Assembly: GCA_964416845.1 (NCBI GenBank)
Contig: CAYQFV010000003.1
Coordinates: 1-59,594 of the forward strand
DNA length: 59,594 nucleotides
Reading direction: 5' to 3'
Source of the DNA: an uncultured Phycisphaeraceae bacterium
GTDB lineage: Bacteria > Planctomycetota > Phycisphaerae > UBA1845
Part shown: in pieces, positions 14,252-55,859 of the stretch
Layout: every line of letters begins with the position of its first letter
Position numbering within the stretch: the first letter of the stretch is position 1
The notes under the pieces: generated by a model
Databases searched by the model: none
Told to the model about the DNA's origin: nothing
The model's input: only the letters and a program-made list of their open reading frames with translations
Position numbers and translations under genes: made by a program

Positions 14252-14316
14252 CCGCCGAAGTATAGTTGCGCGACCTTGGTATCTCAACACGACCGTCGCC
14301 CGTAAGAGAATGCGTC

Positions 14317-27528: not shown

Positions 27529-27753
27529 GTGAAGACGTTACGTTTCAACATCGACGGGATGCATTGTGACGGCTGTGTCGGTTCTGTCCGCGGCGAGCTT
27601 GAACGCTTGAACGGCGTGACCGCCAGCGAGGTCGACCTGCATCACGCCGATGTGTCGTTCGACGAGTCCTCGTGCGGTGCAGCGGAAATCGTGGCGGCCA
27701 TCCAAGCCGCCGGATCGTTCAACGTGACGGGTTTTGTCCCCGTTGAGGAGTAA
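27529..27753 (+). CDS. copZ: Heavy-metal-associated domain copper chaperone (CopZ-like)
   Basis: GMHCDGC motif in a 74-aa protein; AAGGAG RBS; directly upstream of the ATPase. Confidence 0.85.
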   Translation: MKTLRFNIDGMHCDGCVGSVRGELERLNGVTASEVDLHHADVSFDESSCGAAEIVAAIQAAGSFNVTGFVPVEE

Positions 27754-32727: not shown

Positions 32728-32866
32728 GAACGAAGTCTGGGGACGCTCGCCACCGACTTCGACACAGCGGCATTGGTATTGCGTTGTAGCGTGGCGATTG
32801 CTGATGGAGCAGTTCATGCGAATCCTCTCAAACCGGATCGAACAGTCCGCAACGATGTCACGGACG

Positions 32867-34171
32867 TCAATCTGTTCCGCGAGCTTCGATCGTCATCTGC
32901 GCGTGCAGTGCCCCCCAGACGGCCGGCCCGCTCACCGAAAGCGACACCGTCGCCGACGAATCGTCGAAATCGCGTTGCTCGACGACCGAATCCACGACCA
33001 GAGCGCGAACTTGCGATTTTAACTCCCGACGCGATGCGAAGTACCGTTTGACCGACATTGTTGGCGTTAGCGGCAACTCGCCCAAACGGTCAAACAGGCG
33101 CTCGCGCGCGTCCCTTGTAGCAGCCCGTACCGCTCGGACACGTCCATCGCGTGACCCGATCGCGTCGTCGACAGATCGGCCGATTGCGCGGATTCTCTCG
33201 CCAGCCCAATCGGGACTGTCAACGCCCGAGAGGCTCGAAGCAGTGGACATGACCCGCACTGCCGGAGCTCCCGTCCCGGTGGCCTCGACCATCGAGCCAG
33301 CGAAACACTTCGATACCTGCTCGATGTCTTCAACCGTCGCACGATGACCACGATAGAAGCGTTTGTAGAGCTTGAGCATCAAATTGCTGGCTTGCTTCAC
33401 TGGAATCGACACCGTCACATCCACCAACAATTCGTTGTGATGAAAATATCGCCGCGATTCCTTCGCGCCCAAGACGAGGCGATCGGCGTGGTCGGCGAGG
33501 CTGACTTCCTCCGCCAACAGGTCGCCGAACAGCATGCTCGAGTTGATTCGCACGCACATCAGCCGCTCGAGCAGTCTACGCCGAGCATCGAGACGGGCCA
33601 TGCGAATCGCCGCCAGTTTGTCCCGCGCGGAAACCGGCCGCCAAATGTCCGGGTAGGCATACGGACGCGTCGTCGGGACGGCGGCGCCGATGATGTCCTC
33701 GATACCTTGAGGTAATTCCGGGTGAAGTTCGGCCCGAGGAGCACCGGCACCAACGATCGACAATAAGTCTTTGCCAAAACGGACTCCAAGCTTGTCAAAA
33801 TCGGACCTCAGGATTTGGCCCCCCTTGTGGTGGCGCTGAAACACCGACCGAAGTTCCGCAACAATCTTCGACATGGGGACACTCGCCGAGACCTCGCACG
33901 TGCCGTCGTCATGAAACGTGGCAGGCCCGACCTCGACGTGTTTGACGAAGGCATCGATTTCCGACTTGATGGCCCCACATTCGCTCGCGAAGTCATGAAC
34001 GAAAACCCCGGGGCGAATCTCGATCCCGTTGATCGTCGCGCACAGTTTGCGATAGCAATCCGCCTCGGCGTCTCGCCTTGCCAGCAATTGCGACTGATCA
34101 CCCGACTGACCCGCAGCGCTCACCGCCAAGGTCAGCACTGCGAAACACGTGCGCTTTCTTAAGTGGATCAT
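32867..34171 (-). CDS. Secreted protein with three LPP20-like repeats
   Basis: Signal peptide; repeats AEADCYRKL, ARLDARRRLLERL, ATRDARERLFDRL. Confidence 0.55.
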   Translation of the reverse strand: MIHLRKRTCFAVLTLAVSAAGQSGDQSQLLARRDAEADCYRKLCATINGIEIRPGVFVHDFASECGAIKSEIDAFVKHVEVGPATFHDDGTCEVSASVPMSKIVAELRSVFQRHHKGGQILRSDFDKLGVRFGKDLLSIVGAGAPRAELHPELPQGIEDIIGAAVPTTRPYAYPDIWRPVSARDKLAAIRMARLDARRRLLERLMCVRINSSMLFGDLLAEEVSLADHADRLVLGAKESRRYFHHNELLVDVTVSIPVKQASNLMLKLYKRFYRGHRATVEDIEQVSKCFAGSMVEATGTGAPAVRVMSTASSLSGVDSPDWAGERIRAIGRSVDDAIGSRDGRVRAVRAATRDARERLFDRLGELPLTPTMSVKRYFASRRELKSQVRALVVDSVVEQRDFDDSSATVSLSVSGPAVWGALHAQMTIEARGTD

Positions 34172-34521
34172 GTTCCCACTGTCTCCCCGGCCCGATCGCG
34201 AAACCATAATCTATCGGCGCCAAAAACTCCAGATCGTCGCGGCCGCACAAGGCCAGAATTATACCATTCCCGGCTGCCGTGTGACTGTTGCGTGCACAAG
34301 TTTGGCTTTAGATCGTCCAACCCGCCAGCCCAAAACCGGCCAAGGTTGGGCGTCTACCGCAAACCTGCCCGCCGCCGCCTCGCGGTGACTGGCATCGGTT
34401 GTTCGGAACGGCCACATGGTGACGTTCGATCCGCTGACGGCGTGCCCAGGCCGTGACGGGCGTTGACACCGGCGTCGTCTCGCCCTAACACATAGTCGGT
34501 TCGCGTGCGCCGATACGCTCA

Positions 34522-35776: not shown

Positions 35777-37396
35777 TTAGTGTATAGGCCAGTCTGCGTG
35801 CGACCAGTAGAACGCCCAGTTCGGGCCACGGTGGACGGTGGCAAAGTACGTGAGGATCGCAAACCCGACCAGAAAGCACGTGAACAACGCGACCGCACCC
35901 ATCCGCGTCGAGTTGGTCGTCTTGACCACCAAGACCGACCAGCACGCGAACAAGAATACGAAGACGGTTCCCGGATTGAAGAGCGTGATGACAATCTGAG
36001 GGACGTTCGCGGTCGCAGACCAGTTTCGGAGCCACCCGAAGTTGACCGTGAAGCACAGCATGCCAACCACAGTTGCCGCGCTGAAGAGCAAGCTCCACAG
36101 AGCGACACGCCTGCCTCGTCGGCCGCTAAACCAGACACCGACGTCCTCGGGTTCACGATCCAAGTAAGGTACGAGTGCCAAGCCGAGAACCACGATCGCG
36201 GGGATGCCCACTCCTCCCATGAAAGCGGAATAGGAAACCAACTCCTGCAAGCCCAGGAAGTACCATGGCGCCTTGGCCGGGTTCTCCGGTACAGCCGCGT
36301 CGGCCATCTCCTTCAGCGGCGCGTCGAAGAATGCGCCAAGCAGGAGCATGGCGAGTACCGTGAACATCGTGGCTGTCGTAATGACGTACAACACGCCCGG
36401 CCAAGTCGGAATTGTGTTGCGCATCTCTCGATTCACCTGCGGGGTGGAACCCTTCATCAGCCCCATCAACCCGTAAGTCTTGATGGATGTCGCGCGTCCT
36501 GCTGCATCCGAGCCTGCCGAATCCAACACGGGAGTGTCAGCCGCAACGGCATCGTCGGCCGACTTCGGGCGCGTGAGCCCGCCGTCTTTTCGAATACGCC
36601 AAAAATGCACGCCGATCAAGATTGTCGTAATGACTGGCAGAACTATAACGTGGAGGACGTAGAACCGAATGAGCGCCTCTTGCCCGACGTAGTGCGAGCC
36701 CAGCAGCAGTTCCTTCTGGATGCGCCCAATGTGGAAATACTGTGTGATACCGAGCGCGTCGGTCAGTTCCTGCGGCGATTGAGCGATGTTGGCGCCGATC
36801 GTGACCGCCCAATATGCGAGCTGGTCCCAGGGGAGTAGGTAACCGGTGAAGCTCAGCGCCAGCGTAATGACGAAGAGCGCCATTCCTATGACCCAGTTGA
36901 ATTGCCGTGGCTTCTTGTACGCGGCGGTGTAGAACGCTCTGGCCATGTGCAGAATAACGCAGGCAACCATCGCGTGTGCTGACCAGCGGTGTACGTTACG
37001 AATGAAGCGGCCAGTGGGAACGACGTAAATGATGTCCAGCATCGAGGTGTAAGCCTGATCGACCGACGGCTTGTAATACACCATGAGCAAAACGCCTGTA
37101 ATGCAAAGAATGACGAACAAGACGAAGGTGGCCACTCCCAACCCGAAGGTCGTTGTCGCCTTGATCGCATGGAGGTGGGTTCGCGTCGGAAGGACGTGCA
37201 GAAAGAAATTCGTGAAGATAGTTTGCGATCTGGCGCGATCCGACGTCGGACGTCCGTGTCGGATCACCGAGTCACGAAAGGCGCGCGGGGTTGTAGCGAT
37301 ATTGCGAACGAACTCGCGCAACGCCGGCCGATCGCGAGTCGAATCAGACTGCGGGGCGGCGGATTCGGAAAGCTCGTCTTGTTTCGATTTCTTCAT
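35777..37396 (-). CDS. Cytochrome b subunit of a Rieske/cytb complex (b6-like part fused to subunit IV-like part)
   Basis: Heme His pairs HRWSAH...LH and LH...VH; GYLLPWDQLAYWA; PAKAPWYFLGLQEL in the C-terminal part. Confidence 0.92.
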   Translation of the reverse strand: MKKSKQDELSESAAPQSDSTRDRPALREFVRNIATTPRAFRDSVIRHGRPTSDRARSQTIFTNFFLHVLPTRTHLHAIKATTTFGLGVATFVLFVILCITGVLLMVYYKPSVDQAYTSMLDIIYVVPTGRFIRNVHRWSAHAMVACVILHMARAFYTAAYKKPRQFNWVIGMALFVITLALSFTGYLLPWDQLAYWAVTIGANIAQSPQELTDALGITQYFHIGRIQKELLLGSHYVGQEALIRFYVLHVIVLPVITTILIGVHFWRIRKDGGLTRPKSADDAVAADTPVLDSAGSDAAGRATSIKTYGLMGLMKGSTPQVNREMRNTIPTWPGVLYVITTATMFTVLAMLLLGAFFDAPLKEMADAAVPENPAKAPWYFLGLQELVSYSAFMGGVGIPAIVVLGLALVPYLDREPEDVGVWFSGRRGRRVALWSLLFSAATVVGMLCFTVNFGWLRNWSATANVPQIVITLFNPGTVFVFLFACWSVLVVKTTNSTRMGAVALFTCFLVGFAILTYFATVHRGPNWAFYWSHADWPIH

Positions 37397-37437
37397 ATCA
37401 GTTTCAACTCAAGCACCGTTTCTGCGTGGCTTGGGAC

Positions 37438-37923
37438 TCAAGCTTCAAAGATCGAACCTTCCTTGACTTCCTTCAAGGTGTCTGCGACAAGCGATCCTTC
37501 CGGCGAAACGCTCAGATCGGCCCAGATTAGTCCCTTTGGGGCAGGACCGCCGGTTACCAGTCCGTTGGCGTCGAACCTCGATCCGTGGCAAGGGCACTTG
37601 AACGTGCCATCTTCAGCCCGGTTCGTGATGCAGCCCAAATGGGTGCAAACGGCGGAGATGGCGTGAAACCCTTCGTCACTGCGGAACAGCCAAAGGTGCG
37701 GGGATGGGAAGTACGTGGCGGAACCAATGGCGAATTGGTCCGGACGCCCGAGCTTCACCTTCGAGTCGGATTCGGGGAACACCGAGGGCATTGGCAGTCG
37801 CAATGCCCCCATAATGGCCATGACAAACGCGACGACGGTCGTCCACGCCGCCGCCAACCCCAGGAAATCGCGCCGCGTTGCCGGCGGCTTGAATCGTTCA
37901 CTTTGCTCGATCGTTGATTGCAT
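37438..37923 (-). CDS. Rieske 2Fe-2S subunit
   Basis: Tat-like RRDFL plus TM helix; CTHLGC and CPCHGS. Confidence 0.95.
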   Translation of the reverse strand: MQSTIEQSERFKPPATRRDFLGLAAAWTTVVAFVMAIMGALRLPMPSVFPESDSKVKLGRPDQFAIGSATYFPSPHLWLFRSDEGFHAISAVCTHLGCITNRAEDGTFKCPCHGSRFDANGLVTGGPAPKGLIWADLSVSPEGSLVADTLKEVKEGSIFEA

Positions 37924-37931
37924 CGGTTCTC

Positions 37932-39872
37932 TCATCCCGCAGCGGCTGTATTCTTGCCGCCGACTCCAGTCCACTCACCAGAAAAGCTGAACCGCTCCAT
38001 GGTGATCGCACCCACGGGACACCGTTCGGCACACAGTGCACAGCGGATGCACTTCTGCTCGTCCTTGATGATCGCGCCTTGAGAGGAAAGGTCCGCGTCT
38101 CCGTATCGGTCGCGCAGCAACTCGGCCAGGTCGGGGACGCTGGCCAGGCGGTCGCACGACACAAGTTGTAAACAGAGTTCAGGGCAGACGTCGGCACAGC
38201 CCCCACAAAGGATACATACTTCGGAATCAAATATGGTGTTAACGCCGCAGTCCAAACAACGACATGCCTCGGCAACTGCAGATGCCTCGCCGTATCCGCA
38301 CTCAACAGCTTTCGCATGGTCGGTATGGCGTTCCAAAGGAGATATCTTCGGAATCGGCGTGCGCGGAACCTTCTCATAGTCCTTTTCACGGGAATACCCG
38401 GGAATACCCAGATGAACGAAGGTGTGTCGTTCGCCGAGCGGCTGACCCGTCAGGTACGTGTGAACACTTCGTGCGCACTTCTTCCCGCTCGCCACCGCGT
38501 CGATCAGCAGGCGAGGTCCGTACGCTATATCACCTGCAAGGAACACGTCCGGCGCGCCTGTTTGAAGCGTATTCGTATCGCAAGGCAACACGCCGCGGTC
38601 GTTCGGTTCCAAGTCATCGCAGTCGCTCAGGAACGACAGATCAGCCTGCTGGCCAATGGCCCAGACCACCGTATCCACGTCGAGCGTCACACGATCATCA
38701 TCGTCGAACTGAGGCGCGAAGCGGCGATTCTCATCGAACACTCGCAAACATCGCTTGAACACCGCGCCGCGAACCGCGCCGTCCGGCGTCCGCAGAATCT
38801 CGACAGGCCCCAACGATGGATGGAGTTCGACGCCCTCTTCGTGGCCTTCAAGGATCTCAATGTCGTCGGCAGGCATTTCCTCAATGCTTTCGAGGCAACA
38901 GAGATGAACCTCACTGACATTCGCTTGCCGAAGCGCACTGCGGGACACGTCGTGGCCAACCTGGCGGATGACGGTTCTGGAAATGTCGTATGCAACATTG
39001 CCTCCGCCAATGACCACGACGCGCTGGCCGAGCTGCGAGAACGTCGATGCAGGACTTCGGTTGTACAACGCGGTGTCGCGAAGAAACTCTACGCCGCCAA
39101 AGACACCCGGGCCTTTGCCTCCCGGGATGGGAATCTCTCGCGACCGCTTTGCGCCCACGGCGATGATCGTGGCGACGTGGCTCTTGCGGATGTCGGCCAA
39201 CGAAACGTCACGACCGACTTGCGTATTGCATAAGAACTCCACGCCCAGGGCCCGGATGAGTTCGACTTCCGCTTCGATCAGATCACGTGGAAGTCGGTAT
39301 TCCGGAATGCCGACCGCCAACATCCCAGCGGGAACCGGTTCCATCTCCAACACAACCGGGCGATACCCCAGCAGTGCCAAGTCGTGGGCGGCAGCAAGGC
39401 CCGCCGGCCCGGATCCGATGATCGCAATCCTCGGCCCCGTCGGTTTCTCCTGGCCTATTCCTTGAAGCGTACTCCGTAAAGCGTGCAACTCCTCCATTCC
39501 GCTACATTCACGTCCCGGAGACGCGCGGATAATTCTCTTAAGCAGATCAATGACCTTAATCGCGCCCTTGGTGTCTGACTTCGGGCTGAATCGCTCTGCG
39601 ACGAATCGCTTCAGCGCACGAATGGACACCGCCTCGTCGATAGCGCCACGGCGGCAGGCGGCTTCACACGGAGCGCCGCACACACGTCCACATATACTCG
39701 CGAGCGGATTCGGGCCACGAGCGATCAGGTATGCGCCCTCAAAGTCACCATTAGCAATCGCCCGCACGTAACCTCGCGCGTCAGTGTGGACCGGGCAGGC
39801 GTATTGGCATTTGATCTGCCGCTGCCAATATTCATCATCCGGAACTTCGACGTTAACAGGAGAATAATCCAT
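37932..39872 (-). CDS. FAD/NAD(P)-binding oxidoreductase with multiple 4Fe-4S clusters (GltD/NfnB-like plus ferredoxin)
   Basis: CQYACPVH, CGRVCGAPCEAAC, GSGPAG, GGGNVA, EACRCLDC, CILCGGCADVCP, CIRCALCAERCP; no signal peptide. Confidence 0.88.
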   Translation of the reverse strand: MDYSPVNVEVPDDEYWQRQIKCQYACPVHTDARGYVRAIANGDFEGAYLIARGPNPLASICGRVCGAPCEAACRRGAIDEAVSIRALKRFVAERFSPKSDTKGAIKVIDLLKRIIRASPGRECSGMEELHALRSTLQGIGQEKPTGPRIAIIGSGPAGLAAAHDLALLGYRPVVLEMEPVPAGMLAVGIPEYRLPRDLIEAEVELIRALGVEFLCNTQVGRDVSLADIRKSHVATIIAVGAKRSREIPIPGGKGPGVFGGVEFLRDTALYNRSPASTFSQLGQRVVVIGGGNVAYDISRTVIRQVGHDVSRSALRQANVSEVHLCCLESIEEMPADDIEILEGHEEGVELHPSLGPVEILRTPDGAVRGAVFKRCLRVFDENRRFAPQFDDDDRVTLDVDTVVWAIGQQADLSFLSDCDDLEPNDRGVLPCDTNTLQTGAPDVFLAGDIAYGPRLLIDAVASGKKCARSVHTYLTGQPLGERHTFVHLGIPGYSREKDYEKVPRTPIPKISPLERHTDHAKAVECGYGEASAVAEACRCLDCGVNTIFDSEVCILCGGCADVCPELCLQLVSCDRLASVPDLAELLRDRYGDADLSSQGAIIKDEQKCIRCALCAERCPVGAITMERFSFSGEWTGVGGKNTAAAG

Positions 39873-39905
39873 ACGGGTCACCGTGCGCCTAGCTGACAAG
39901 CATTC

Positions 39906-41600
39906 CTATTTCCTGTTCTTCGCAGAAGGTTCCGGTAAGCCTGCGAGCGTACGAACATAGTGTACGAGTTGCCACACTTCGTTGTCGCTGAGGGCTTTTT
40001 GCGCCGGCATCGGCGTGCCCGGAATGCCGACCCGAATCCGCTTGAAGACGTCTTCCGGCTTGTCTCCGCCAGGGAAATAGCCAGTGGTGAGATCCCACGC
40101 CTTAATGCTCCGGCCGCGGTCGTCTACCAACTCCTGCGGACCGTCGCCCTTCCCCTTGTCACCGTGGCAGGACGCGCAGTTGGTCTTATAGAGCTTCGCG
40201 CCAACGGCGGGATCCGGCCGGAACGCAGAGCCAGGCCACGGAACCAGTATGATTCCCTTTGGAGTCAAACGCTTTTCCGCAATTTCCTCGATATCCTCAG
40301 GGGTGACATCGTCGTCATCCGAGAACGCCTCCGTCAGTTTTGCGATTGTGCCTTCCCGATTAATCTCGCGAATATACTTCGCCACAGCCAGCACCTCATC
40401 TTCGGTAAGCTGCGGATTGGACGGCATCTCGCCAAACCGCCGCCCTGTACTGATCGTTCGGACCAAGTCCTCTTGGGTCGGCACACCGTTAATCGCGGAA
40501 ACGTATCGGAACCGCTCATGCCAAAAGTCGCGAGGCTGCCCCTTGATGGTTGCCGCCGCAGGCCCGTTCCCGAGTCCCTTGCCACCGTGACACGCCCCGC
40601 AGAACATTTTGTACAGCGTTTCGCCGCTGGCGAGCGCTGCGTCTTCGTCTATCCGCGGTGGACGCGGCATATGTGTCGCGGGGGCATTCTTTCGATGAAA
40701 GCTCATCATGTACAATGCCAGTGTGCGAGCTTCCTGCGGGGTAAAGCCCATCTTCGGCATCACCGTTCCCGGCGACACCGTTGACGGCGACAGAAAGTGC
40801 TCATAAAGCCATTCCTGCACAGTGTGCTCGCCTTCAACGTGCGTGAAATCGTAATCGTGAGTTCTCTTGTCACCGACGTAGGTCAGGTCCGCGCCAAGAT
40901 CACCACCACCACCACGGTATCGGTGGCAGCCGAGACACCCATTCTCAACCACCAGGCGTTTCCCCTTTACAAGCACTTCGGCCCCCGGAAGCGAAAGCGC
41001 GAGGACCGCCTTCGTGATGCGCGGCTTCGCGACGTCCGGCGCCCCGGCCTGGAAGGAGAAAGCGTACAGATCCGACTGCCCGCCATAAAGGTCGACTTCG
41101 TAGTGGCAGCGCCCACAACTTGTATAGACTGTTGCGTCCCGGAGTAGTGGAGTCATGACATTGGGAACCGGTACGTCGTTGGCGTCCCAACCGTGGGCGG
41201 ATTCCGCCGTGATGGCCCGCCCCTCTCCCTGGTGACAAATCGTACACCCAAACTTCTCCAGAGGGTGGTGCTTGAGTAGATCACCGGGATGTGCCGACAG
41301 TGGCGTCGCAGCGCTCGTCATCTTTGGATTGGCCACCCCCAGATGGCAAGTCGTACAACGATCGATACGCCTCAATTCAGGCAAGAACACCTGTCGGATG
41401 GAAACGTCGAAGGAGGCCGCCGATCGCCTATCACGCTCGGTGTCCGCATCGGCTCGCAGAAGTCGTTGGTACGATCGTTGAAATGCCCGCCAGTGGCCTG
41501 AGTAGTTCTCGCGATAGGCCTCCACCGCCAACACGGCAATCGAGGACGCCGACGCGAACAGCAAGGCCGTCTTCATCATACGCAGTGGATTGCGATCCAT
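39906..41600 (-). CDS. Membrane-anchored hexaheme cytochrome c
   Basis: Six CxxCH (CTTCH, CTICH, CGRCH, CLGCH, CGACH, CASCH); N-terminal hydrophobic anchor. Confidence 0.9.
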   Translation of the reverse strand: MDRNPLRMMKTALLFASASSIAVLAVEAYRENYSGHWRAFQRSYQRLLRADADTERDRRSAASFDVSIRQVFLPELRRIDRCTTCHLGVANPKMTSAATPLSAHPGDLLKHHPLEKFGCTICHQGEGRAITAESAHGWDANDVPVPNVMTPLLRDATVYTSCGRCHYEVDLYGGQSDLYAFSFQAGAPDVAKPRITKAVLALSLPGAEVLVKGKRLVVENGCLGCHRYRGGGGDLGADLTYVGDKRTHDYDFTHVEGEHTVQEWLYEHFLSPSTVSPGTVMPKMGFTPQEARTLALYMMSFHRKNAPATHMPRPPRIDEDAALASGETLYKMFCGACHGGKGLGNGPAAATIKGQPRDFWHERFRYVSAINGVPTQEDLVRTISTGRRFGEMPSNPQLTEDEVLAVAKYIREINREGTIAKLTEAFSDDDDVTPEDIEEIAEKRLTPKGIILVPWPGSAFRPDPAVGAKLYKTNCASCHGDKGKGDGPQELVDDRGRSIKAWDLTTGYFPGGDKPEDVFKRIRVGIPGTPMPAQKALSDNEVWQLVHYVRTLAGLPEPSAKNRK

Positions 41601-41937
41601 TGAACAGTTCTTCCTCGCTACTCATTCCTCACGTGCGAAGACGTACGATCCTCTGACCGCGATTCGCTCATGATTCCCAAAGTAGCGCGCGCCCGCCTCG
41701 GCCAAGAGAGCGGAATCCCGACTAGCGTGCGCCCACACCTGAGCCCACATGGTATTTCTACTCAATGTGCGCAGCTCCGCTCTTAGCATTTCCTCACACG
41801 CCGCCTCGAAACGAAGCATCACCCGACCCGGTACCGGCACCATTGCCGTCTATCAGGCAACGGCCTGTACGGTTGTCGCCCGCACTGAACAACGGCGACG
41901 CGATCCGCCCGCCATCGCATTCATCGTTTGCAAATCG

Positions 41938-42168
41938 TTACTCGTTGATCACTTCCGGCCCGGACTCATCGTGCTCGGCAGGCGCTTCCTCATGCTCTCC
42001 ATTGAGGAAGAACAAAGTGTCACAATTGAAGATATTGCACGTGTTCTCAGCGAAGAACGCATTCGGATCGCGTAACAAGGCTTCACACCCGGGGAGCAAG
42101 ATTCCTCCAACAGCAAAAGCAACGCTCGCCAAACCGCCGAGAAAAGCGTGCAACCGATTACGTTTCAT
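41938..42168 (-). CDS. Small lipoprotein (76 aa) with C-x4-C motif
   Basis: GGAG RBS; lipobox-like LLPGC; NTCNIFNCDTLFF; paralogous to the neighbouring ORF. Confidence 0.7.
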   Translation of the reverse strand: MKRNRLHAFLGGLASVAFAVGGILLPGCEALLRDPNAFFAENTCNIFNCDTLFFLNGEHEEAPAEHDESGPEVINE

Positions 42169-42235
42169 GATTCGTGACTCCGGGAAGCCAATGCTATGGA
42201 GAAAATACGACGCGATGGCAGTCAGGACCACATCG

Positions 42236-42472
42236 CTAGTGTCCACCCCCGCCACCGCCTTCATCAGCGGAAGCAACGTCCGCATCCATCGTCGGGCGTG
42301 TCGACAACGGCAGAAGGTCTTCCACGAAGAAGAGGACGTCGCAATTTAGGAACTCGCAGGCGTTGCGGCTCGCAAACTTGAGCGGGTTAAAACTACATCC
42401 CGGTGCGAAAGCGATGCCGCACAACACAGTGATCAAGACAACCGCAGTTTCCCTAATTGATCGGATTCGCAT
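42236..42472 (-). CDS. Small lipoprotein (78 aa) with C-x4-C motif
   Basis: GGAG RBS; lipobox-like FAPGC; NACEFLNCDVLFF; paralogous to the neighbouring ORF. Confidence 0.7.
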   Translation of the reverse strand: MRIRSIRETAVVLITVLCGIAFAPGCSFNPLKFASRNACEFLNCDVLFFVEDLLPLSTRPTMDADVASADEGGGGGGH

Positions 42473-42532
42473 ATCTCTGAATACTCCAAGGATGGTCGCA
42501 TCACGCCGACCAGGATGTCTGTTTCCGATCCT

Positions 42533-42865
42533 TCAGTTGGCGGACTTCAAGAACTTCAGGATTTTTCGGTGCTCCTCTGCCGTAAGGTTTCCCCGCACGC
42601 GCATGTGAAGCGCGATCACGTCCCATTCTCGATCGCTGCGCTCGCTCGGGTCGCGAAGATTGTGACACCGCGCACAATTCTGGCGCCAGAGCAACGCTCC
42701 GCCGCGGTCCGGACCGTCCGAATCGGCGGCGACGGCGGTCGACGTGCCACCGCCATCCGCCGTCGTCACTTTCGCGGAACTCAGCGTCTTCTGACATCCG
42801 CCAGATACTGCGGAAATCGCCGCCGCACCCGCAAAGGCAAGTAGCGCCAATAGTCTTGTATTCAT
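42533..42865 (-). CDS. Monoheme cytochrome c lipoprotein
   Basis: Lipobox-like SGGC; single CARCH; HMR as possible distal ligand. Confidence 0.8.
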   Translation of the reverse strand: MNTRLLALLAFAGAAAISAVSGGCQKTLSSAKVTTADGGGTSTAVAADSDGPDRGGALLWRQNCARCHNLRDPSERSDREWDVIALHMRVRGNLTAEEHRKILKFLKSAN

Positions 42866-42892
42866 CGCCTTCTCCACAGCGAGGATTCCATA

Positions 42893-44278
42893 TCAGAATC
42901 CAATGGCAAATTGCATGAAGAATCCGTCTTCATTGTCGTCACCACGCACGTTGTCGTGCGTGTAAGTGGCCTTCCAAACGATGTTCGGACGGATCCAGTA
43001 ATCGAGCCCGAATGTCAACCGCTCACGATCCGCACCGCGGGTTGTGGGGCCGGATTCGCGTACCTGATCATAGCGAACAACGAATTCGACGTTCTTGAGG
43101 TCAATGCTATCGCCGAGCGTGAAGCTTGTGAGTGTCGGCCGGTACGCCCCTTGCACGAACCATCCGTTGCGCTTGTTGTTGAACGTGAACGGATCGAATG
43201 GCCCGGTAAAGACGAACTTGTCGGTGTCCACCCACATGGCCTCCCCTCGGAAGTCCAATCGGCCTTTGATGGCCTCGATCTCGCGTGCGTAACTGAAGTC
43301 AACGCCCTGAATAAGCGTATCAACGCCCCGGGACGCCGAACCGCTGTCACCGACTCTCCCGGTCAGAAAAGAATATCCGACTTCCAACTCCGGTATTGGC
43401 AAGAATCCGACTCTGCCGCCAAACGTCTTGTCGTTGTTGTTGTCACGGAAGTTCTCGAACCCGAGTTTTCCTGCGGAGGCAAACGCCGTGTCGTCGAAGT
43501 TCGGACCGTTCACATAGTATGTGGCATAGTTGAACTTCGTGTCGCCAACCGCAAACCCACCGCGCAACTGGACACCGAGCCCCGTTTCTCCCATCAGTCC
43601 GCGCTCATAGATGAGCGGCATGGTGGTCGTCTTGTTGATCCACGGCGGATGCCACCGCTCCCAAAACGTACCGAACGGTATCAGAAACTTGCCCGCGCCG
43701 ATAGTCATGTAGTCGTTGAGCAAGTAACTGAGCTGGAACTGCCCGAGTTCGACTTCGGTCTCTTCGTCGTCCAGTGCGAGCTCGATTTGCGTCTCGAGCA
43801 ACAGCCTGTCGATCGGCTTCCACAAAAGAATCGGAGCAATGGCAGCGCCGAATGTTGAATCTATATTGTCGCGATCCTGAAACGTCACGACTGCCGATCC
43901 GCCGAGCGCAAAGTTCGTCATGCCCGGCAGCAAAGGTTCCGTCACGTCGGTCAACTCCTCCCGCATGTCTTGAAGGATGGACTCGCGCTGACGTAACGCA
44001 AACGCGTCAAATCTCGCCTGCCAGTCTTCCGGCGATGTGTCGCCCACACTGGTCTTGAGTTCCGTAAGTTCCTTGCGAAGTTTTTCGTTCTCTTGCTTGA
44101 GCTGCACATACTCGCCTCGGAACTGCTGATACTCCTTCAGGAACTTCTCGAATTCGCGCCGTGTCAATGGTGCATCGCCGGCGGAATCCTGCTGCGCGAC
44201 GAGAGTCGACACTGGACCCGCGATGCACAGGAAAGCCAGTGCAAACAACCCGAATCGTGACGCATGGAGAGTTTTCAT
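42893..44278 (-). CDS. Outer-membrane beta-barrel (porin) with N-terminal coiled coil
   Basis: Signal peptide, heptad-rich segment, alternating beta-strand pattern, terminal FMQFAIGF. Confidence 0.8.
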   Translation of the reverse strand: MKTLHASRFGLFALAFLCIAGPVSTLVAQQDSAGDAPLTRREFEKFLKEYQQFRGEYVQLKQENEKLRKELTELKTSVGDTSPEDWQARFDAFALRQRESILQDMREELTDVTEPLLPGMTNFALGGSAVVTFQDRDNIDSTFGAAIAPILLWKPIDRLLLETQIELALDDEETEVELGQFQLSYLLNDYMTIGAGKFLIPFGTFWERWHPPWINKTTTMPLIYERGLMGETGLGVQLRGGFAVGDTKFNYATYYVNGPNFDDTAFASAGKLGFENFRDNNNDKTFGGRVGFLPIPELEVGYSFLTGRVGDSGSASRGVDTLIQGVDFSYAREIEAIKGRLDFRGEAMWVDTDKFVFTGPFDPFTFNNKRNGWFVQGAYRPTLTSFTLGDSIDLKNVEFVVRYDQVRESGPTTRGADRERLTFGLDYWIRPNIVWKATYTHDNVRGDDNEDGFFMQFAIGF

Positions 44279-44333
44279 ACCATCATCCAGGCCGGGACCC
44301 GCTCGTAGTGCTGGGTCGGTTTCAGTGCTCTGC

Positions 44334-45071
44334 CTATTTTTGCTTTAGAGTGAATTCGACGCGAACCTCGCCGCCGGCGGTCACCGTGACGTTGGCCTTT
44401 TGCTTGCCAAGCTTCTCTTGCCATATCACCACCGTGTACGTACCCGCCGGAACGTTTTCGAAACGAAACGTTCCGTCTGCACCGGTCACGGCGTAATACG
44501 GGTTCTTGGCAACCACAACCCAACTTGACATCCATGGGTGAATGTCGCAGCCAACGTGAATACGCTCGGTGTAGTCGAAGGTAACATCCAACTTCTTCAT
44601 CCCTCCCGGCATGGACCGGTTGAACGGTTCGTTCTTCTTTGCATAGAGATGAACGTTGTGGAGTATTCCGTCACTGTTCAGAATATTCAGTGGTTCCCCT
44701 TGTGGTACGACGACGATGTGTGGAGAGAATTGGCAACCGTGCTGGTTAAGAATAGCTGGGTTGTCCGCATCGATACTAAAGGGCTTGCCGTGAGCGATCT
44801 TTTTAATGTACGCAACAACCCAGCGGACTTTGGCATCGGCGGAAACGACGAGGTCTTCATTTTGAATAGGCTTGACGTGACAAGGTTTATCCTGTCCGGC
44901 CACAGTAAGCGTACGCTGTTTGGGAATCGCGCCTTCCCAGTTGACCACACCCACAATTGTTCCGCCGTTTTTGACCTCCATCGGTTTGTACTTGGCAGCG
45001 GCCGGACGGGCTGAAAAACACACAACCGCCAGGCATGTCAGCACGGCGAAGGACTGATTTCTAGTTTGCAC
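44334..45071 (-). CDS. Periplasmic cupredoxin-like protein with carboxypeptidase-regulatory-like domain
   Basis: HNVH...CDIHPWM type-1 copper ligand pattern; TGADGTFRFENVPAGTYTVVIW module. Confidence 0.75.
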   Translation of the reverse strand: MQTRNQSFAVLTCLAVVCFSARPAAAKYKPMEVKNGGTIVGVVNWEGAIPKQRTLTVAGQDKPCHVKPIQNEDLVVSADAKVRWVVAYIKKIAHGKPFSIDADNPAILNQHGCQFSPHIVVVPQGEPLNILNSDGILHNVHLYAKKNEPFNRSMPGGMKKLDVTFDYTERIHVGCDIHPWMSSWVVVAKNPYYAVTGADGTFRFENVPAGTYTVVIWQEKLGKQKANVTVTAGGEVRVEFTLKQK

Positions 45072-45115
45072 TCTGTAGCTCCAATCGTTCTCTTAGTGTT
45101 TCTGGGATCGCTGCA

Positions 45116-45973
45116 TCACACTTGCCCGGCCAAGAAACGCACGTAGTAGACGAGTTGCCAGACTTGTTCGTCGCTCAGGGCGACGGCCGCCGACATCGGC
45201 GTGCCAGGAACGCCGCAACGAATCCGCTTGAAGACTTCCTCCACGGTGGTCCCGCCCCGAAACTCGCCGGACGTCAAATCTCGGACACTGATGGGCTTGC
45301 CTTGTTCATCGAGAGGTTTGGCGAGTCCGTCACCGCGTCCAGTCAAGCCGTGGCAAGACGCACAGTTCGCCGCGTACAGCTTGCGACCCGCTTCAGTGTC
45401 GCGTTGAAACTCAGATCCTGGTCGTGTCACGTGGATCGCACCGCGCGGCTTGACACGAATGTGCGATATCTCTTCGATCTCCTCCTCCGACGTGTCGTCA
45501 TCGTCGGAGAACTCTTCACGCAGATCGTCAAGCCAGCCGAGGCGTTGGATCTCTCTGACGTAATCGGCGAGCACGCGGACTTCCGCATCGGTGAGTTGCG
45601 GACCCGCGGGCATCTGACCGTAGCGCCGACCGTTCCGGATCGAGTCGCTCAAGTCCTCATCGGTCGGCACTCCATTCAGCGTCGAGACGTAACGGAATCG
45701 CTCGTGCCGGAAGTCTCGGGGTGCAACGTCAAGCGCGATCGCAGCTGGCCCTCGCCCCGTTCCAGTATCGCCGTGGCAGGGCGCGCAGTGCGCGGTGAAG
45801 AGCTCGTGGCCTTTCAACGTAGCGACCGCTTCGGTAGTGACCGCGTCGGTGGTGGCCATGGATGCTGTCGAGGCAGGGGCTCGGCACGCCGTTTGGCTGA
45901 ACGCTACCCCGCACGCCAAACCCAAAGCTGCGGTCACCACAACTCCGCCACATGTCACCTTCATTGGGATCAT
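45116..45973 (-). CDS. Periplasmic diheme cytochrome c
   Basis: CAPCH and CASCH with distal Met motifs GQMP and GTPM; signal-like N-terminus. Confidence 0.88.
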   Translation of the reverse strand: MIPMKVTCGGVVVTAALGLACGVAFSQTACRAPASTASMATTDAVTTEAVATLKGHELFTAHCAPCHGDTGTGRGPAAIALDVAPRDFRHERFRYVSTLNGVPTDEDLSDSIRNGRRYGQMPAGPQLTDAEVRVLADYVREIQRLGWLDDLREEFSDDDDTSEEEIEEISHIRVKPRGAIHVTRPGSEFQRDTEAGRKLYAANCASCHGLTGRGDGLAKPLDEQGKPISVRDLTSGEFRGGTTVEEVFKRIRCGVPGTPMSAAVALSDEQVWQLVYYVRFLAGQV

Positions 45974-46057
45974 CTCCGTGTCATCGCTCAAATGTTCTGC
46001 AACGACATTCGACCGGTTCGCCTGCAAAGAGCGCGCGAGCGCTATTTGACAGGGCCA

Positions 46058-46073
46058 TGCACGCGTAGCGCCA
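46058..46073 (-). promoter_or_regulatory. Sigma54 -24/-12 promoter candidate for the redox cluster
   Basis: Minus strand TGGCGCTACGCGTGCA has exact GG-N10-GC spacing; next to a sigma54 activator gene. Confidence 0.55.
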
Positions 46074-46318
46074 GTGAAAAGATCGAGCCGGTCCTACTTC
46101 GACATAAACTCCGTTTTTGACTAGGCTTGCGGGCGAGACACGATCGACGGGTCGTTTCGCAAAAATGAGAAACTGTCGCTGCGTTTCGCAAGTCTGCAAC
46201 GCCCGTGGCTTGAAACGGGCATGCAGGATACGATGCGGTTGGTGCGAATCTGCCTCGCACGCCGCGGCGACAGCCATGCGAGCGGGAGATTTCGGCGTCC
46301 CGTCAATTCTGCCGAGGA

Positions 46319-47944
46319 GTGAGACTCGTGAAGACCACGCGTACACACGCACTGAACATCCGCCGGATCGTCGGTGGGACGCTCATGCTCGTGTGTTTCG
46401 GCGCCAATGTGCTCGCTGTGATCTATGTCACGCGGGAACACAAACTGATCGAGGACACCATCTCGGAGACGACGTCGGACCACGGGGTAGCGTGGGCACG
46501 GCTTTGCGCCGTCGAGATGCAAAGTGGAGGTGTTGCGGGTCTTCAGCGCCTGATTGACGCGATCGGACAGAGCCGCGGCGTTCGCCTTGCCATGGTCGTG
46601 GGCAACTCCGGGCGGGTCGTTGCTGCGACGGACCCGTCGCAAGTCGGTCGGGTGCATCGCATCGATCACGACGCCATCGCCGAAGACCAGCCGTCAGAAG
46701 CGCACCACGTAGAAGAACTCGGGCCGTCGCCTACGGGTTTCTTTCATGAGGAAGGACACACCTTCCAATTCGTCTTCCCCATTCGCAACGACGGAAAAGA
46801 CTACGGCGAACTCATATTGGATGTGAATACCGCCTGGGGCAACCTGCAGGCGAAAGCGCTGGCGCTGAAAGGCTTGGCGCTTGTCTTTGCCGTGACCTTG
46901 CTGATAGGGTTGGCAGCGTGGGCTCTCGACTGGCGATTGCGTAAGGCTGTCAAAGCCCTCATCGCCGCAACCCGAGCCATCGCCAAGGGCGAGCGAACCT
47001 TCGACGTCGAGGTCGGAACCGGCGACGAATTGGACATTCTGGGAGATAGCGTCAAGCAACTCGCCGAGGCGCTTCAAGACACCGAGGAGAGAGTGGCACA
47101 CTGGCATCGAGAACTTGAATCCACAATCGCCAACCGAACTGCACAGCTCGAAGAGTCGCAACAGCTTCTTGCCGAACGCGAAAAGATGGCCGCGCTGGGG
47201 TTGATGGCCGCGGGCATCGTGCACGAGATCGGAAACCCTCTAACTGCGATGTCGGCGATCGTCCAGCGAATACAGCTTAAAGCCAATGCGGCGCTTGGAG
47301 AAAAGTGCGGCGTGTTGGTCGAGCAGATCGATCGGATCTCAAGAATTGTCGACGACATGCGCCAAGTGGCGAGGCCGGTGTCCGCCAGAGGTTATTCGAC
47401 GAACGTCAATGAGACGCTGCGCATCGCCATCAAGGTGACGCAATACGACCCCCGGTCGAAGATGGTGAAGATTAGCACCGAGCTTGCGAACGAGGTTCCC
47501 CGAGTATCGGGCAATGCCGACCGATGGCAGCAAGTCTTCATCAACCTGATCATCAATGCGTTGGACGCCATGCCCGACGGAGGACAGCTAACCGTTTCGA
47601 CTTCTGTTTCCGGCGAGCTTGTGATCATTTCTTTTCGCGATACCGGCAGTGGCATGACGCCCGATCAGATCAGGAACCTGTATCACCCTTTCTTTACGAC
47701 AAAGGCGAGCGGGGGGATGGGATTGGGACTGTCGGTTTGCAATAGCATCGTACGGAGCTACGGAGGCGACATCGCGGTAACAAGTCAACTCGGATCGGGT
47801 ACCGAGTTTCGGATTACCCTCCCACCATACGAGGAGCGGCCCCGTTCGGCCACGTATCCGAAGACCGGTGTTCACGACGACGAGGTTCCCGACGCGACGT
47901 TTGACCCGAAGTTGCTTCACGCCCCACGGAAAGCGACACCGTAG
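46319..47944 (+). CDS. Sensor histidine kinase (2 TM, HAMP, HisKA, HATPase)
   Basis: GIVHEIGNPL, VFINLIINALDA, DTGSG, PFFTTK, GMGLGLSV. Confidence 0.93.
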   Translation: MRLVKTTRTHALNIRRIVGGTLMLVCFGANVLAVIYVTREHKLIEDTISETTSDHGVAWARLCAVEMQSGGVAGLQRLIDAIGQSRGVRLAMVVGNSGRVVAATDPSQVGRVHRIDHDAIAEDQPSEAHHVEELGPSPTGFFHEEGHTFQFVFPIRNDGKDYGELILDVNTAWGNLQAKALALKGLALVFAVTLLIGLAAWALDWRLRKAVKALIAATRAIAKGERTFDVEVGTGDELDILGDSVKQLAEALQDTEERVAHWHRELESTIANRTAQLEESQQLLAEREKMAALGLMAAGIVHEIGNPLTAMSAIVQRIQLKANAALGEKCGVLVEQIDRISRIVDDMRQVARPVSARGYSTNVNETLRIAIKVTQYDPRSKMVKISTELANEVPRVSGNADRWQQVFINLIINALDAMPDGGQLTVSTSVSGELVIISFRDTGSGMTPDQIRNLYHPFFTTKASGGMGLGLSVCNSIVRSYGGDIAVTSQLGSGTEFRITLPPYEERPRSATYPKTGVHDDEVPDATFDPKLLHAPRKATP

Positions 47945-47947
47945 CTC

Positions 47948-49315
47948 ATGTCTGCCACCATCTTGATCGTTGAAGACGAGCGCGCCATTCGGGAAGAGTT
48001 GGCCGATTTCCTCCGCGAGGAGGGGTTCTCGTGTGTTCTGGCTTCCAATGGCCAAGAGGGTATTGCGTGCGTCGATGGTCGCGACCTTGACGTGGTCCTC
48101 CTCGATGTCCGCCTTCCGGACATGTGTGGCATTGATGTGCTGGCCCGCTTGAGAGCACTTGCCCCCGAATCGCACGTCTTCATCATGACAGCACATCCAT
48201 CGGTCGATACGGTCGTCTCGGCGCTCAGGCTGGGCGCCATCGACTACGTGACCAAGCCGCTCATCCTCGAGGACTTACTACAGAAAATCAGACGATCGAT
48301 CGAATTCCGTGCTCAGCAAATGGAAATCCGCTGGTATCGTCAGCAATTGCAAATCGAATACGGTTTCTCGAACATCATTGGCAAGTCTCAAGCAATGAAG
48401 GATGTATTCACCCTGGTCCAACGCGTCGCTTCGACCGAATCACCGGTCCTCGTCACCGGCGAAAGCGGAACAGGCAAAGAACTGATTGCCAACGCGATTC
48501 ACCATAACGGAACCCGGAGAGATGCACGCCTCATCCCACTCAACTGTGCGGCGATTCCGGCGGCGTTGCTCGAATCTCAGATGTTCGGACACCTGAAAGG
48601 AGCGTTCACGGGTGCAGATGTGCGAACTGCAGGCCTGTTCGCAGCCGCCAGCGGTGGGACACTGCTTCTTGACGAAATCGGCGAGTTGCCACTGGAGCTT
48701 CAGCCCAAGCTGCTTCGAGCGGTAGAGCAGCAGAGCGTTCTCCCCGTCGGTGCGACCGAGCCGGTGAGCATTGACACGCGCATCATCGCGTCGACGAATA
48801 CCGATCTTCAGCAGGCTGTAAAGGACGGCCGCTTTCGGGCCGACTTATTCTACCGGCTCGCCATCGTGACCATCGAGATTCCGCCGTTACGCGACAGAGT
48901 CGAAGACATCCCCGCGCTCGTTGAACGGTTCGTCGCCAAGCTGAACACGAAGTTGCGAAAGAACTTCCGTGGCGTATCGAATGCGGCACTCGGACACCTG
49001 CTGCGATACCGTTGGCCTGGCAATGTGCGAGAGCTGCAGAATGTCATTGAGCGGGCCATGATCCTACAAGATGGCGATTTGATCACGCCTTCGGCACTGC
49101 CGTCAAGCTTGCTCGAACGGCCCCATCCGGACCGCGTCGTCGGACCGCTGAAAGCCGCCGTCCATGAGTTTGAAAAAGAATACATCAACCGTATTCTCCA
49201 AGTAACGAATGGAGACAAGCAACTTGCAGCCGAGTTGCTTGGCGTCAGCGTGAGCTCGATCTATCGCAGACTTCAAGCCATCGAAGACGAAACCGGTGAA
49301 TTCGGGCACAACTGA
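47948..49315 (+). CDS. Sigma54-dependent response regulator (NtrC family)
   Basis: Receiver (VEDE, LDVRLP, KP); AAA+ ([29 protein letters not shown]); C-terminal HTH. Confidence 0.95.
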
Positions 49316-55806: not shown

Positions 55807-55859
55807 AGTCCTACCGTTCAGATGACCGGCCGAGTCGCGGATTCAATCCTAACCAGCCA

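Follow-up and report, generated by a model that had tools for sequence, protein, structure and literature searches.

The stretch of DNA analysed here (hereafter the window) comprises 59,594 nucleotides of contig CAYQFV010000003.1 of an uncultured Phycisphaeraceae bacterium (GCA_964416845.1). Ten open reading frames (ORFs), all located on its minus strand between positions 35777 and 45973, encode a redox system that most probably acts as one regulated unit and connects the quinone pool and the nicotinamide nucleotides NAD(P) with a redox partner in the periplasm. The genes, numbered g01 to g10 in the direction of transcription, fall into an envelope or porin half (g01-g06), encoding a diheme cytochrome c, a cupredoxin, a porin, a small monoheme cytochrome c and two mini-lipoproteins, and a half resembling a cytochrome bc complex (bc half; g07-g10), encoding a hexaheme cytochrome c, a flavoprotein, a Rieske protein and a cytochrome b. 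An initial annotation had reported these ten genes in this order on one strand, and ORFs, motifs and domains bear out both order and content; g01, g04 and g07 contain two, one and six CxxCH motifs, respectively, and Pfam and NCBIfam together identify four of the proteins, i.e., g03 (weakly), g08, g09 and g10. The interpretation offered with that annotation, a single electron conduit, is partly supported. The part that stands is the probable regulated link between a periplasmic partner and the quinone pool and NAD(P). The cluster itself is a mosaic with a porin for solutes, a recent, lineage-specific junction of two mobile modules and not one ancient conduit. It is probably best read as a periplasmic electron branch to a small solute, presumably a metal ion, rather than as a heme wire across the outer membrane.

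All ten genes are found in the same order, and next to the same divergently transcribed kinase/activator pair, in two other loci, L001 (GCA_054033115.1) and L169 (GCA_024275565.1), with protein identities of 55-87%. Since gene order and regulators are both kept in these loci, the arrangement is not due to chance. In the window, the pair consists of a sensor histidine kinase (46319-47944, plus strand), with an AtoS/ZraS-like core and transmembrane (TM)-like segments at residues 17-35 and 185-203 around a periplasmic segment of ~150 residues, and a sigma-54-dependent response regulator (47948-49315, plus strand), which is divergent from the cluster and whose top NCBIfam matches are AtoC, NtrC and ZraR, all below cut-off. 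The response regulator adjoins the cluster in L001, L167, L168, L169 and L171, and the kinase is syntenic in relatives. At 46058-46073 on the minus strand, 84 nucleotides 5' of the ATG of g01 at 45973, lies a sigma-54-type -24/-12 element, TGGCGC-N5-GTGCA, with 9 of the 11 consensus bases. A perfect element, TGGCAC-N5-TTGCA, is present at the aligned position in L001, and sites with 9 of 11 bases are found upstream of g01 in L168 and L169; in these four loci, it is upstream of g01 alone that such an element is conserved. A search for the pattern across the window gave 22 matches against 26 expected from shuffled sequences. Because there is no enrichment, weight is placed on the conserved position beside a sigma-54 activator and not on the match itself. 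Two TGCGAAA repeats, 29 nucleotides apart (46155-46190, minus strand) and conserved in position between the window and L001, are possible activator-binding sites, and a TTATGTCGAA block further upstream of g01 is likewise conserved between the window and L001.

The spacer between g06 and g07 (41601-41937, minus strand) measures 337 nucleotides and aligns poorly with L001; its equivalent in L169 has 117 nucleotides. No second sigma-54 promoter before g07, i.e., no site with at least 9 of the 11 bases, was present in the four spacers examined, and the spacer in the window contains no terminator-like site on the cluster strand and no Rfam match. Scans for sigma-70 promoters and terminators gave no more than expected by chance. 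Two candidates for a function of the spacer were rejected: a small gene, as the 73-residue ORF at 41622-41843 is, in view of the short spacer of L169, not conserved, and an RNA, as Rfam gave no match and the alignment with L001 is poor. With an element before g01 alone, neither a comparable element nor a terminator in the spacer, and only 117 nucleotides in L169, one transcript starting at the g01 promoter would be the simplest reading. The proposal of one operon in the initial annotation is plausible to that extent, the transcript itself being a prediction from the sequence. That the ten genes form one sigma-54-controlled unit, joining a Rieske/cytochrome b module to an envelope electron-transfer set, is given about an even chance.

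The distribution of each half was examined in two scans, one with the hexaheme protein as the query against one genome per species (80 loci returned) and one with a porin alignment against metagenomes (80 loci returned, mostly from soil). Genes for a flavoprotein, a Rieske protein and a cytochrome b lie beside the multiheme cytochrome c gene in 53 of the 80 hexaheme-query loci. The order is flavin adenine dinucleotide (FAD) protein, Rieske protein, cytochrome b, multiheme cytochrome c in 52 of these 53 loci, which belong, by record title, to the Planctomycetota, Acidobacteriota, Nitrospirota, Desulfobacterota and other 'Deltaproteobacteria', Zixibacteria, Ignavibacteria, Gemmatimonadota, Hydrogenedentota, Verrucomicrobiota and others. 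The window departs from this norm in that cytochrome b and subunit IV are fused and in that the hexaheme gene comes first instead of last and abuts the porin half. In the metagenomes, a g04-like gene follows the porin gene in 70 of the 72 loci with room for one, with an identity of 37-75%; the identity of the porin itself is lower in most of these loci (33-40%). Upstream of the porin gene, there is usually one for a small class-I cytochrome c. The conserved core of the porin half is, therefore, a trio consisting of a class-I cytochrome c, the porin and a monoheme lipoprotein with a heme domain of ~55 residues. This trio usually stands alone, and cupredoxins and metal-type regulators are frequent companions of it.

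Several of these observations weigh against a single unit. The porin was present in one of the 48 long bc-anchored genome loci (L083), and Rieske and cytochrome b genes lay beside the porin in one of the 80 porin-anchored metagenome loci (L127). The porin set has no adjacent quinol module in most loci; it stands alone with a sigma-54 kinase/activator pair in L167, where the porin shows 55% identity, and it is accompanied by no bc module within the recovered part of the contig in L170. Rare co-occurrence of the halves had been named beforehand as an observation that speaks against the conduit, and rare co-occurrence is largely what was found. Furthermore, the 337-nucleotide spacer could hold an unrecognised promoter, as the scan used a sigma-70 consensus and planctomycete promoters are poorly known. 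The cluster might represent two unrelated neighbouring operons, i.e., a self-contained envelope system and an ordinary complex III (g07-g10), and the bc module indeed occurs alone, in its fixed order, across many phyla, while the spacer is poorly conserved. The G+C content of the porin half (0.56-0.57 at positions 42001-46000) is slightly lower than that of the bc half (0.58-0.60) and than the window average (~0.60), which is compatible with separate origins of the two halves. Were the halves independent, no more would remain of the finding than an ordinary complex III and, next to it, an envelope operon that is uncharacterised. This explanation is considered unlikely, however, because the porin set has been joined independently to Rieske/cytochrome b or NrfCD modules in six architectures, the hexaheme gene is found next to the porin set instead of in the last place that it usually occupies, and the sole conserved sigma-54 element is found before g01, with little spacer left in L169.

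The recurrent junctions comprise at least five gene orders besides that of the window. In L171, the regulators, diheme cytochrome c, cupredoxin, porin, g04 homologue and two small lipoproteins are directly followed by a Rieske protein, cytochrome b, subunit IV and a 1032-residue octaheme cytochrome c, and no flavoprotein is encoded. Genes for the porin, g04, the Rieske protein and cytochrome b are tightly packed in L127, and a g04-like gene, porin, flavoprotein, Rieske protein, cytochrome b and multiheme cytochrome c follow each other on one strand in L083. In L003, genes for a kinase, activator, flavoprotein, Rieske protein, cytochrome b, subunit IV and hexaheme cytochrome stand next to a divergent porin-like gene and diheme cytochrome c gene. 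Yet another type is seen in L166, L136 and the P0209 locus, where the porin and g04 genes come after genes for an NrfC-like Fe-S protein, an NrfD-like protein of the membrane, a small protein and a cytochrome c. Finally, the hexaheme gene ends the porin set in L168 without being followed by a flavoprotein, Rieske or cytochrome b gene; the metagenome-assembled genome (MAG) to which L168 belongs has a separate bc module on another contig (L010). Because of these recurrent junctions, of the hexaheme gene that stays with the porin set in L168, and of the paralogy of g01 and g07 described below, a functional link between the two halves is more likely than chance adjacency.

Within the bc half, g07 (39906-41600, minus strand) encodes a membrane-anchored hexaheme cytochrome c with six CxxCH motifs and a TM helix at residues 8-26, the N-terminal part of which shows faint Pfam matches to multiheme families. 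It is the predicted c subunit of the Rieske/cytochrome b complex, replacing cytochrome f or c1. The product of g08 (37932-39899, minus strand) is a GltD/NfnB-like oxidoreductase subunit for FAD, NAD(P) and [4Fe-4S] clusters (Pfam Pyr_redox_2, Fer4_20 and Fer4), with the Fer4_20 domain at the N terminus and a 2x[4Fe-4S] domain at the C terminus; in the PDB, it matches subunits of the NfnA/B and GltD types. This cytoplasmic subunit has neither a predicted TM helix nor a signal peptide. The Rieske [2Fe-2S] protein g09 (37438-37923, minus strand) carries an RRDFL twin-arginine translocation (Tat) motif, and its likeliest start is Met18 (37923). Its top matches in the PDB, 9rk4_A (E 2.6e-20) followed by 9rk3_A (E 1.6e-18), score better than every b6f Rieske protein; from their molecule names, these two entries are taken to be Rieske structures of the anammox bacterium Kuenenia. 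In g10 (35777-37396, minus strand; Pfam Cytochrome_B), a cytochrome b6 is fused to a part with five TM segments that resembles subunit IV: residues 84-272 match cytochrome b6 chains best in the PDB, and five TM-like segments are found in residues 335-519. The two parts are encoded by separate genes in L003 and L171.

The envelope half is tied to g07 by the periplasmic diheme cytochrome c g01 (45116-45973, minus strand; CAPCH and CASCH), which is 56% identical to residues 319-554 of g07 over 236 residues and, hence, a paralogue of the C-terminal diheme part of the hexaheme protein. Chain B of 6h5l, a Kuenenia structure related to hydroxylamine oxidoreductase (HAO), is matched by g01 and by the diheme domain at the C terminus of g07 alike, and it is the best PDB match of g01. 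This chain, a diheme cytochrome c, is the redox partner of the octaheme protein. Since g01 is a soluble copy of the outer end of the hexaheme protein, it has the properties expected of a shuttle that docks where the hexaheme protein docks. Thiosulfate dehydrogenase and other catalytic diheme families were considered for g01 and rejected, as NCBIfam gave only generic class-I matches, below cut-off.

The adjacent g02 (44334-45071, minus strand) encodes a type-1 copper cupredoxin with a C-terminal Ig-like CarboxypepD_reg domain. Pfam recognised the CarboxypepD_reg domain alone and missed the cupredoxin, and a search of the PDB by sequence found only the Ig-like domain and a marginal CuA match, so that a fold search was needed. 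An AlphaFold2 (AF2) model built with 29 homologues has a predicted local distance difference test score (pLDDT) of 91, and its Foldseek matches are amicyanin, plastocyanin, pseudoazurin and the cupredoxin domain of NirK, with a TM-score of 0.7, normalised to the target, for amicyanin. His138, Cys175, His178 and Met181, in an amicyanin-like C-x2-H-x2-M loop, are invariant in the 29 homologues, as are Cys64, Cys113 and His118. The blue-copper assignment made earlier is thus upheld by the modelled fold and the invariant His, Cys, His and Met residues, and g02 is a blue-copper protein with predicted copper binding. The pair of cupredoxin and diheme cytochrome c associates with this type of bc complex in other phyla too: g02-like and diheme cytochrome c genes come directly after those for the flavoprotein, Rieske protein, cytochrome b and multiheme cytochrome c, with no porin, in a magnetotactic Nitrospirota MAG (L035, 12411-14196) and in a Desulfocapsaceae MAG (L050, 12398-13942).

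The outer-membrane porin g03 (42893-44278, minus strand) consists of a signal peptide, a stalk and a barrel and shows a weak Porin_O_P match. Its AF2 model (pLDDT 79) has 16 strands, two long helices at residues 40-116, which form a periplasmic, coiled-coil-like stalk of ~75 residues, and a long, L3-like inward loop with short helices between strands 5 and 6. Foldseek matched the model to OmpT/OmpU, the stalked porin OmpM1, OprP (2o4v), OprO (4rjw) and OmpF/OmpC. The earlier porin call agrees with this model and these matches. No CxxCH motif is present in g03, and the model depicts an OprP/OmpF-like diffusion channel for small solutes that would be unable to enclose a multiheme protein.

These features bear on the possibility that the cluster encodes a conduit of the MtrCAB/PioAB type, with a heme wire through the outer membrane. 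A porin encoded among c-type cytochromes and the faint multiheme matches in the N-terminal part of g07 would fit such a conduit. However, porins that sheathe a decaheme cytochrome have 26 strands (bioRxiv 10.1101/228056), as compared with 16 strands and an internal loop in g03, the hexaheme protein is TM-anchored in the cytoplasmic membrane and is a subunit of the bc complex in 52 of the 53 related loci, and no extracellular multiheme cytochrome is encoded in the cluster. With a barrel too small and neighbouring cytochromes that are mono- and diheme class-I proteins and not heme wires, an MtrAB-type arrangement was rejected, and the whole explanation is regarded as extremely improbable. The electron conduit of the initial annotation is weakened in this respect, since a 16-strand barrel with an inward loop cannot enclose a cytochrome in the manner of MtrB or PioB.

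The porin gene is followed by g04 (42533-42877, minus strand), which encodes a small monoheme cytochrome c lipoprotein (CARCH) with a linker of ~35 residues and a heme domain of ~55 residues. Its homologues share an invariant set of Trp64, Cys68, Cys71, His72, Trp85 and Met92, and at least 90% of them possess the lipoprotein Cys that follows the signal peptide. The family comprises 972 clusters at 50% identity, nearly all of stand-alone proteins of 90-125 residues; a phmmer search of all libraries returned stand-alone proteins or tandem copies alone and no informative fusions. In P0414, P0450, P0465, P0489 and P0494, which measure 196-221 residues, the heme domain is duplicated or triplicated in tandem, with two to three matched stretches.

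A porin that travels with a mini-cytochrome is reminiscent of Cyc2, and a split, Cyc2-type outer-membrane metal oxidoreductase was considered as an alternative. The barrel and g04 would then exchange electrons with Fe(II)/Fe(III) or another metal, with the cupredoxin in the place of rusticyanin, the diheme cytochrome c in that of Cyc1/CycA1 and the bc complex in that of PetI, and the set does parallel the scheme generally known from Acidithiobacillus. Consistently, the monoheme domain of g04 is very small, its gene comes immediately after that of the porin in nearly all loci, and relatives exist in which a cytochrome and the porin are fused. In addition, g03 belongs to the same class of 16-strand, OprO/OprP-like barrels as Cyc2 (bioRxiv 10.1101/228056). 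However, the signature AxPxFAR[Q/K][T/Y] before the CxxCH motif is absent from g04 and from the fused proteins P0219 and P0236-P0238, the cytochrome in the fusions is of the upstream class-I type and is separated from the barrel by a linker of ~100 residues and the stalk instead of being located at the pore, and an L3-like loop lies inside the modelled barrel. A split Cyc2 is, therefore, held to be fairly unlikely. In its broadest form, the idea is that the porin and the obligate heme lipoprotein of ~55 residues constitute a two-piece functional analogue of Cyc2, a hitherto unrecognised outer-membrane metal (Fe, Cu or Mn) oxidoreductase. To judge from hundreds of metagenome loci and ~970 protein clusters at 50% identity, such an enzyme would be widespread among soil and marine bacteria, and in this planctomycete lineage it would be hard-wired to a bifurcating Rieske/cytochrome b complex. 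This proposal is speculative and rather doubtful; if true, redox chemistry of metals in the envelope would be coupled directly to the quinone pool and NAD(P)H.

Some loci with the porin module deserve mention for their further content. In Opitutus, the upstream class-I cytochrome c is fused to the N terminus of the porin, before a long Ala/Pro-rich linker and the helical stalk; at 10001-12200 of L164 (Opitutus sp., GCA_039921915.1), this cytochrome-porin fusion is followed by a g04-like gene and then by a CusCBA-like resistance-nodulation-division (RND) pump, with a VKOR/SPW protein upstream. Additional genes of many soil loci encode a CarboxypepD_reg protein, a plastocyanin-family protein of 408 residues, a kinase and an OmpR-type regulator. 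The best NCBIfam match of this regulator is the heavy-metal czt/sil/cop subfamily, which is also among the top matches of the kinase, both below cut-off. Such soil-type loci also encode, downstream of the trio, a protein of 415 residues that carries a Tat-like signal and a ferritin-like (Ferritin_2) domain (L122, 12056-13303). In L170, the porin module is followed by a gene for a 395-residue lipoprotein (5103-6290) with a Gly/His/Asp-rich N terminus and a weak match to P19-type Fe2+ transport (PF10634), and a cytochrome c' gene lies 1.3 kb beyond it.

The last two genes of the envelope half, g05 (42236-42472, minus strand) and its paralogue g06 (41938-42168, minus strand; likeliest start 42168), encode mini-lipoproteins A and B, respectively. 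Both have a signal peptide with a terminal Gly-Cys as well as a C-x4-C-D-x-L-F-F motif and an acidic tail, which in g05 is rich in acidic residues and Gly and ends in His. The lipoboxes in the cluster are atypical (SGGC, APGC and LPGC), and g04, g05 and g06 have no significant match in Pfam or NCBIfam. Homologues of g05 and g06 carry tails rich in His, Asp and Met, e.g., DDHDEMGDDHDE... and MEDMGNMEDMSNMKDMGNMDD, which resemble known copper- and cation-binding stretches; the tails of g05 and g06 in the window are just mildly acidic.

Such tails raise the possibility that the envelope half serves in copper handling, i.e., that periplasmic Cu(I) is oxidised or sequestered, with its electrons passing to the respiratory chain and the porin controlling the passage of copper. 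In line with this idea, g02 is a predicted type-1 copper protein with extra invariant Cys and His residues, the soil loci encode the czt/sil/cop-like regulators and plastocyanin-family proteins mentioned above, together with a faint match to CopI, which may oxidise or sequester periplasmic Cu(I) under low oxygen, and CusCBA-like pumps occur in two unrelated loci, CutA1 in L165 and a CopA-like ATPase in the window. CopI is a cupredoxin-like copper-tolerance protein with His/Met-rich regions (PMC13308877). However, all matches to metal-specific hidden Markov model (HMM) families are below the curated cut-offs, copper efflux genes are common, which makes their adjacency a weak argument, and the tails in the window itself are only mildly acidic. 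Moreover, copper tolerance leaves both the repeated coupling to quinol-oxidising complexes and the paralogy of the hexaheme and diheme proteins unexplained. Copper handling as the role of the system is, therefore, deemed quite improbable.

In the favoured explanation, in which both halves form one electron-transfer unit, quinol would be oxidised at the Rieske/b6 site, as suggested by homology. One electron would pass from the Rieske cluster to the membrane-anchored hexaheme cytochrome c, and the other may travel via the b hemes and Fe-S clusters to the FAD of the cytoplasmic flavoprotein and to NAD(P)+, a path that has been proposed for the anammox complexes. The reduction of NAD(P)+ would thus constitute the low-potential branch where the flavoprotein is present. 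In the periplasm, the diheme cytochrome c would shuttle electrons to or from the hexaheme subunit, while the porin would let a small redox-active solute in or out. This solute, in all likelihood a metal ion or chelate (Cu, Fe or Mn), could exchange electrons with the mini-cytochrome and the cupredoxin by simple outer-sphere transfer. The sensor kinase may detect a periplasmic signal, upon which its sigma-54 activator would turn on the promoter upstream of g01.

As also stated in the initial annotation, the cluster encodes no terminal catalytic subunit, and any substrate is, therefore, expected to react directly with the c-type hemes or the type-1 copper site. A metal ion or chelate is a likely substrate, and genes of a metal type are indeed found in the neighbourhood of the module: CusCBA-like pumps adjoin it in the unrelated loci L164 and L168, CutA1 is nearby in L165, a P19-like lipoprotein comes after it in L170, and the window has its CopA-like ATPase. 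The His/Asp/Met-rich tails of the mini-lipoprotein homologues and the metal-type regulators of the soil loci point weakly in the same direction. As to the direction, flow from quinol to a periplasmic acceptor is slightly favoured, because Rieske/cytochrome b complexes and NrfCD-type partners normally oxidise quinol and reduce periplasmic cytochromes. By analogy with Acidithiobacillus, the reverse, i.e., the inward and uphill flow of electrons from a metal reductant, would be only marginally less probable. Other points are less easily accommodated. With neither a catalytic subunit nor a terminal oxidase among the cluster genes, substrate and direction are guesses, and the links to metals consist of neighbourhood anecdotes and HMM matches below cut-off, for genes that are common anyway. 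Barrels of the OprP family are typically anion-selective, which is awkward for cationic substrates.

The cluster is of broader interest, since the NAD(P)-linked Rieske/cytochrome b complexes of many phyla need a periplasmic high-potential partner, and a candidate set for this role is present here in the same regulated cluster. It constitutes a candidate route, amenable to testing, that would connect the quinone pool with a small redox solute, which is probably a metal ion. The porin/mini-cytochrome/cupredoxin module is widespread and appears to be undescribed: no earlier description of it or of the whole cluster was found in the literature searched, an absence that is no proof. The trio of cytochrome c, porin and mini-cytochrome, which is abundant in soil metagenomes, has no name, and its small members are not represented by a Pfam family. 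Should it act on metal ions, a new marker would be gained for the redox cycling of iron, copper or manganese in soils and sediments.

The cluster is flanked by housekeeping genes (ispG, dnaE, nadE, uvrC and rsmA). A CopA-like copper-exporting P1B-type ATPase with an N-terminal CopZ-like metal-binding domain is encoded ~6 kb from the end of the cluster (27734-30037, plus strand), and ispG and genes for two proteins without a family match lie in between. The latter two (31714-32817 and 32867-34207, both minus strand) comprise 367 and 446 residues, respectively, and neither has an NCBIfam match; the 446-residue protein has no Pfam match either and shows a signal-peptide-like start. Elsewhere in the window, two adjacent large ORFs of 687 and 607 residues without a Pfam match are located at 10407-14290 (minus strand), and the region at 10-18 kb shows an unusually high AT skew of 0.09-0.16 and a local peak in G+C content of 0.645. 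A catabolic-looking set at 50948-57470 (minus strand) includes a CaiB-family coenzyme A-transferase, a protein with the N-terminal domain of methylmalonyl-coenzyme A mutase, and the large subunit of a molybdenum hydroxylase resembling 4-hydroxybenzoyl-coenzyme A reductase or xanthine dehydrogenase.

Among known systems, MtrCAB, PioAB and the porin-cytochrome complexes (PCC) have porin and c-type cytochrome genes side by side, as in the window. The latter differs from them in its smaller barrel and in the absence of both an inserted periplasmic decaheme cytochrome and a surface multiheme cytochrome. The same cast is found in the rus/petI chain of Acidithiobacillus ferrooxidans, in which an outer-membrane porin-heme protein, a diheme cytochrome c, a cupredoxin and a bc complex lead towards NAD(P). 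However, there is no demonstrable homology at the family level beyond shared folds, the cluster in the window contains no terminal oxidase, its bc complex is b6f-like with an NAD(P) subunit of its own, and its hosts live at neutral pH in marine, sediment and soil habitats. Cyc2, the iron oxidase of neutrophilic iron oxidisers, comprises a barrel of 16 strands that is structurally homologous to OprO/OprP and, at its N terminus, a single small heme domain (bioRxiv 10.1101/228056). In the window, a 16-strand, OprO/P-like barrel is likewise associated with one small heme domain, but here the heme protein is a separate lipoprotein, the motif AxPxFAR[Q/K][T/Y]-x5-CxxCH is absent, and a long helical stalk extends into the periplasm.

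The closest published parallel to the whole layout is the extHIJKLMNOPQS cluster of Geobacter sulfurreducens, which encodes the porin ExtI with weak O/P similarity, the adjacent ~100-residue ExtJ, cytochromes, the Rieske protein ExtO, the cytochrome b ExtP and its membrane partner ExtQ (PMC5877670). ExtI has been implicated in the reduction of selenite and tellurite (PMC5877670). ExtP and ExtQ are the best NCBIfam matches of g10, but the scores in the window stay below the cut-offs for ExtP (243.6 versus 290 bits), ExtQ (57.8 versus 150) and ExtS (30.4 versus 100), and g03 and g04 match no Ext model. The window has no counterpart of the selenocysteine cytochrome (ExtKL) or of the cytochromes with 10 and 12 hemes, and neither Pfam nor NCBIfam detected a rhodanese (ExtH) in the cluster; the Geobacter Ext set, in turn, contains no FAD subunit and no cupredoxin. 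Thus, the Ext cluster is an analogue with partial homology, of which the set in the window is not a member.

For the bc half, the closest relatives are the Rieske/cytochrome b complexes of Kuenenia (Kustd1480-1485 and Kuste4569-4574), which consist of a b6-like cytochrome b, a five-helix subunit IV, a cytochrome c with six or eight hemes, and a cytoplasmic NAD(P) oxidoreductase (PMC12954380). Bifurcation of electrons from quinol to a high-potential acceptor and NAD(P)+ is, for these complexes, a proposal that has not been demonstrated (PMC12954380). The window differs from them in the fusion of cytochrome b to subunit IV, the first position of the hexaheme gene, the absence of an HAO-like partner and the junction with a porin/cupredoxin/small-cytochrome set, and its host is, as far as the window shows, not an anammox bacterium. 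It shares with them a b6-like, four-helix cytochrome b with a five-TM subunit IV, a multiheme cytochrome c in the place of cytochrome f, and a FAD/Fe-S subunit for NAD(P). The resemblance to anammox complexes noticed in the initial annotation is thereby substantiated, both by this set of subunits and by the best matches of g09, which are taken to be anammox Rieske proteins, and the bc half belongs to the already-known kind of anammox-type, NAD(P)-linked Rieske/cytochrome b complexes.

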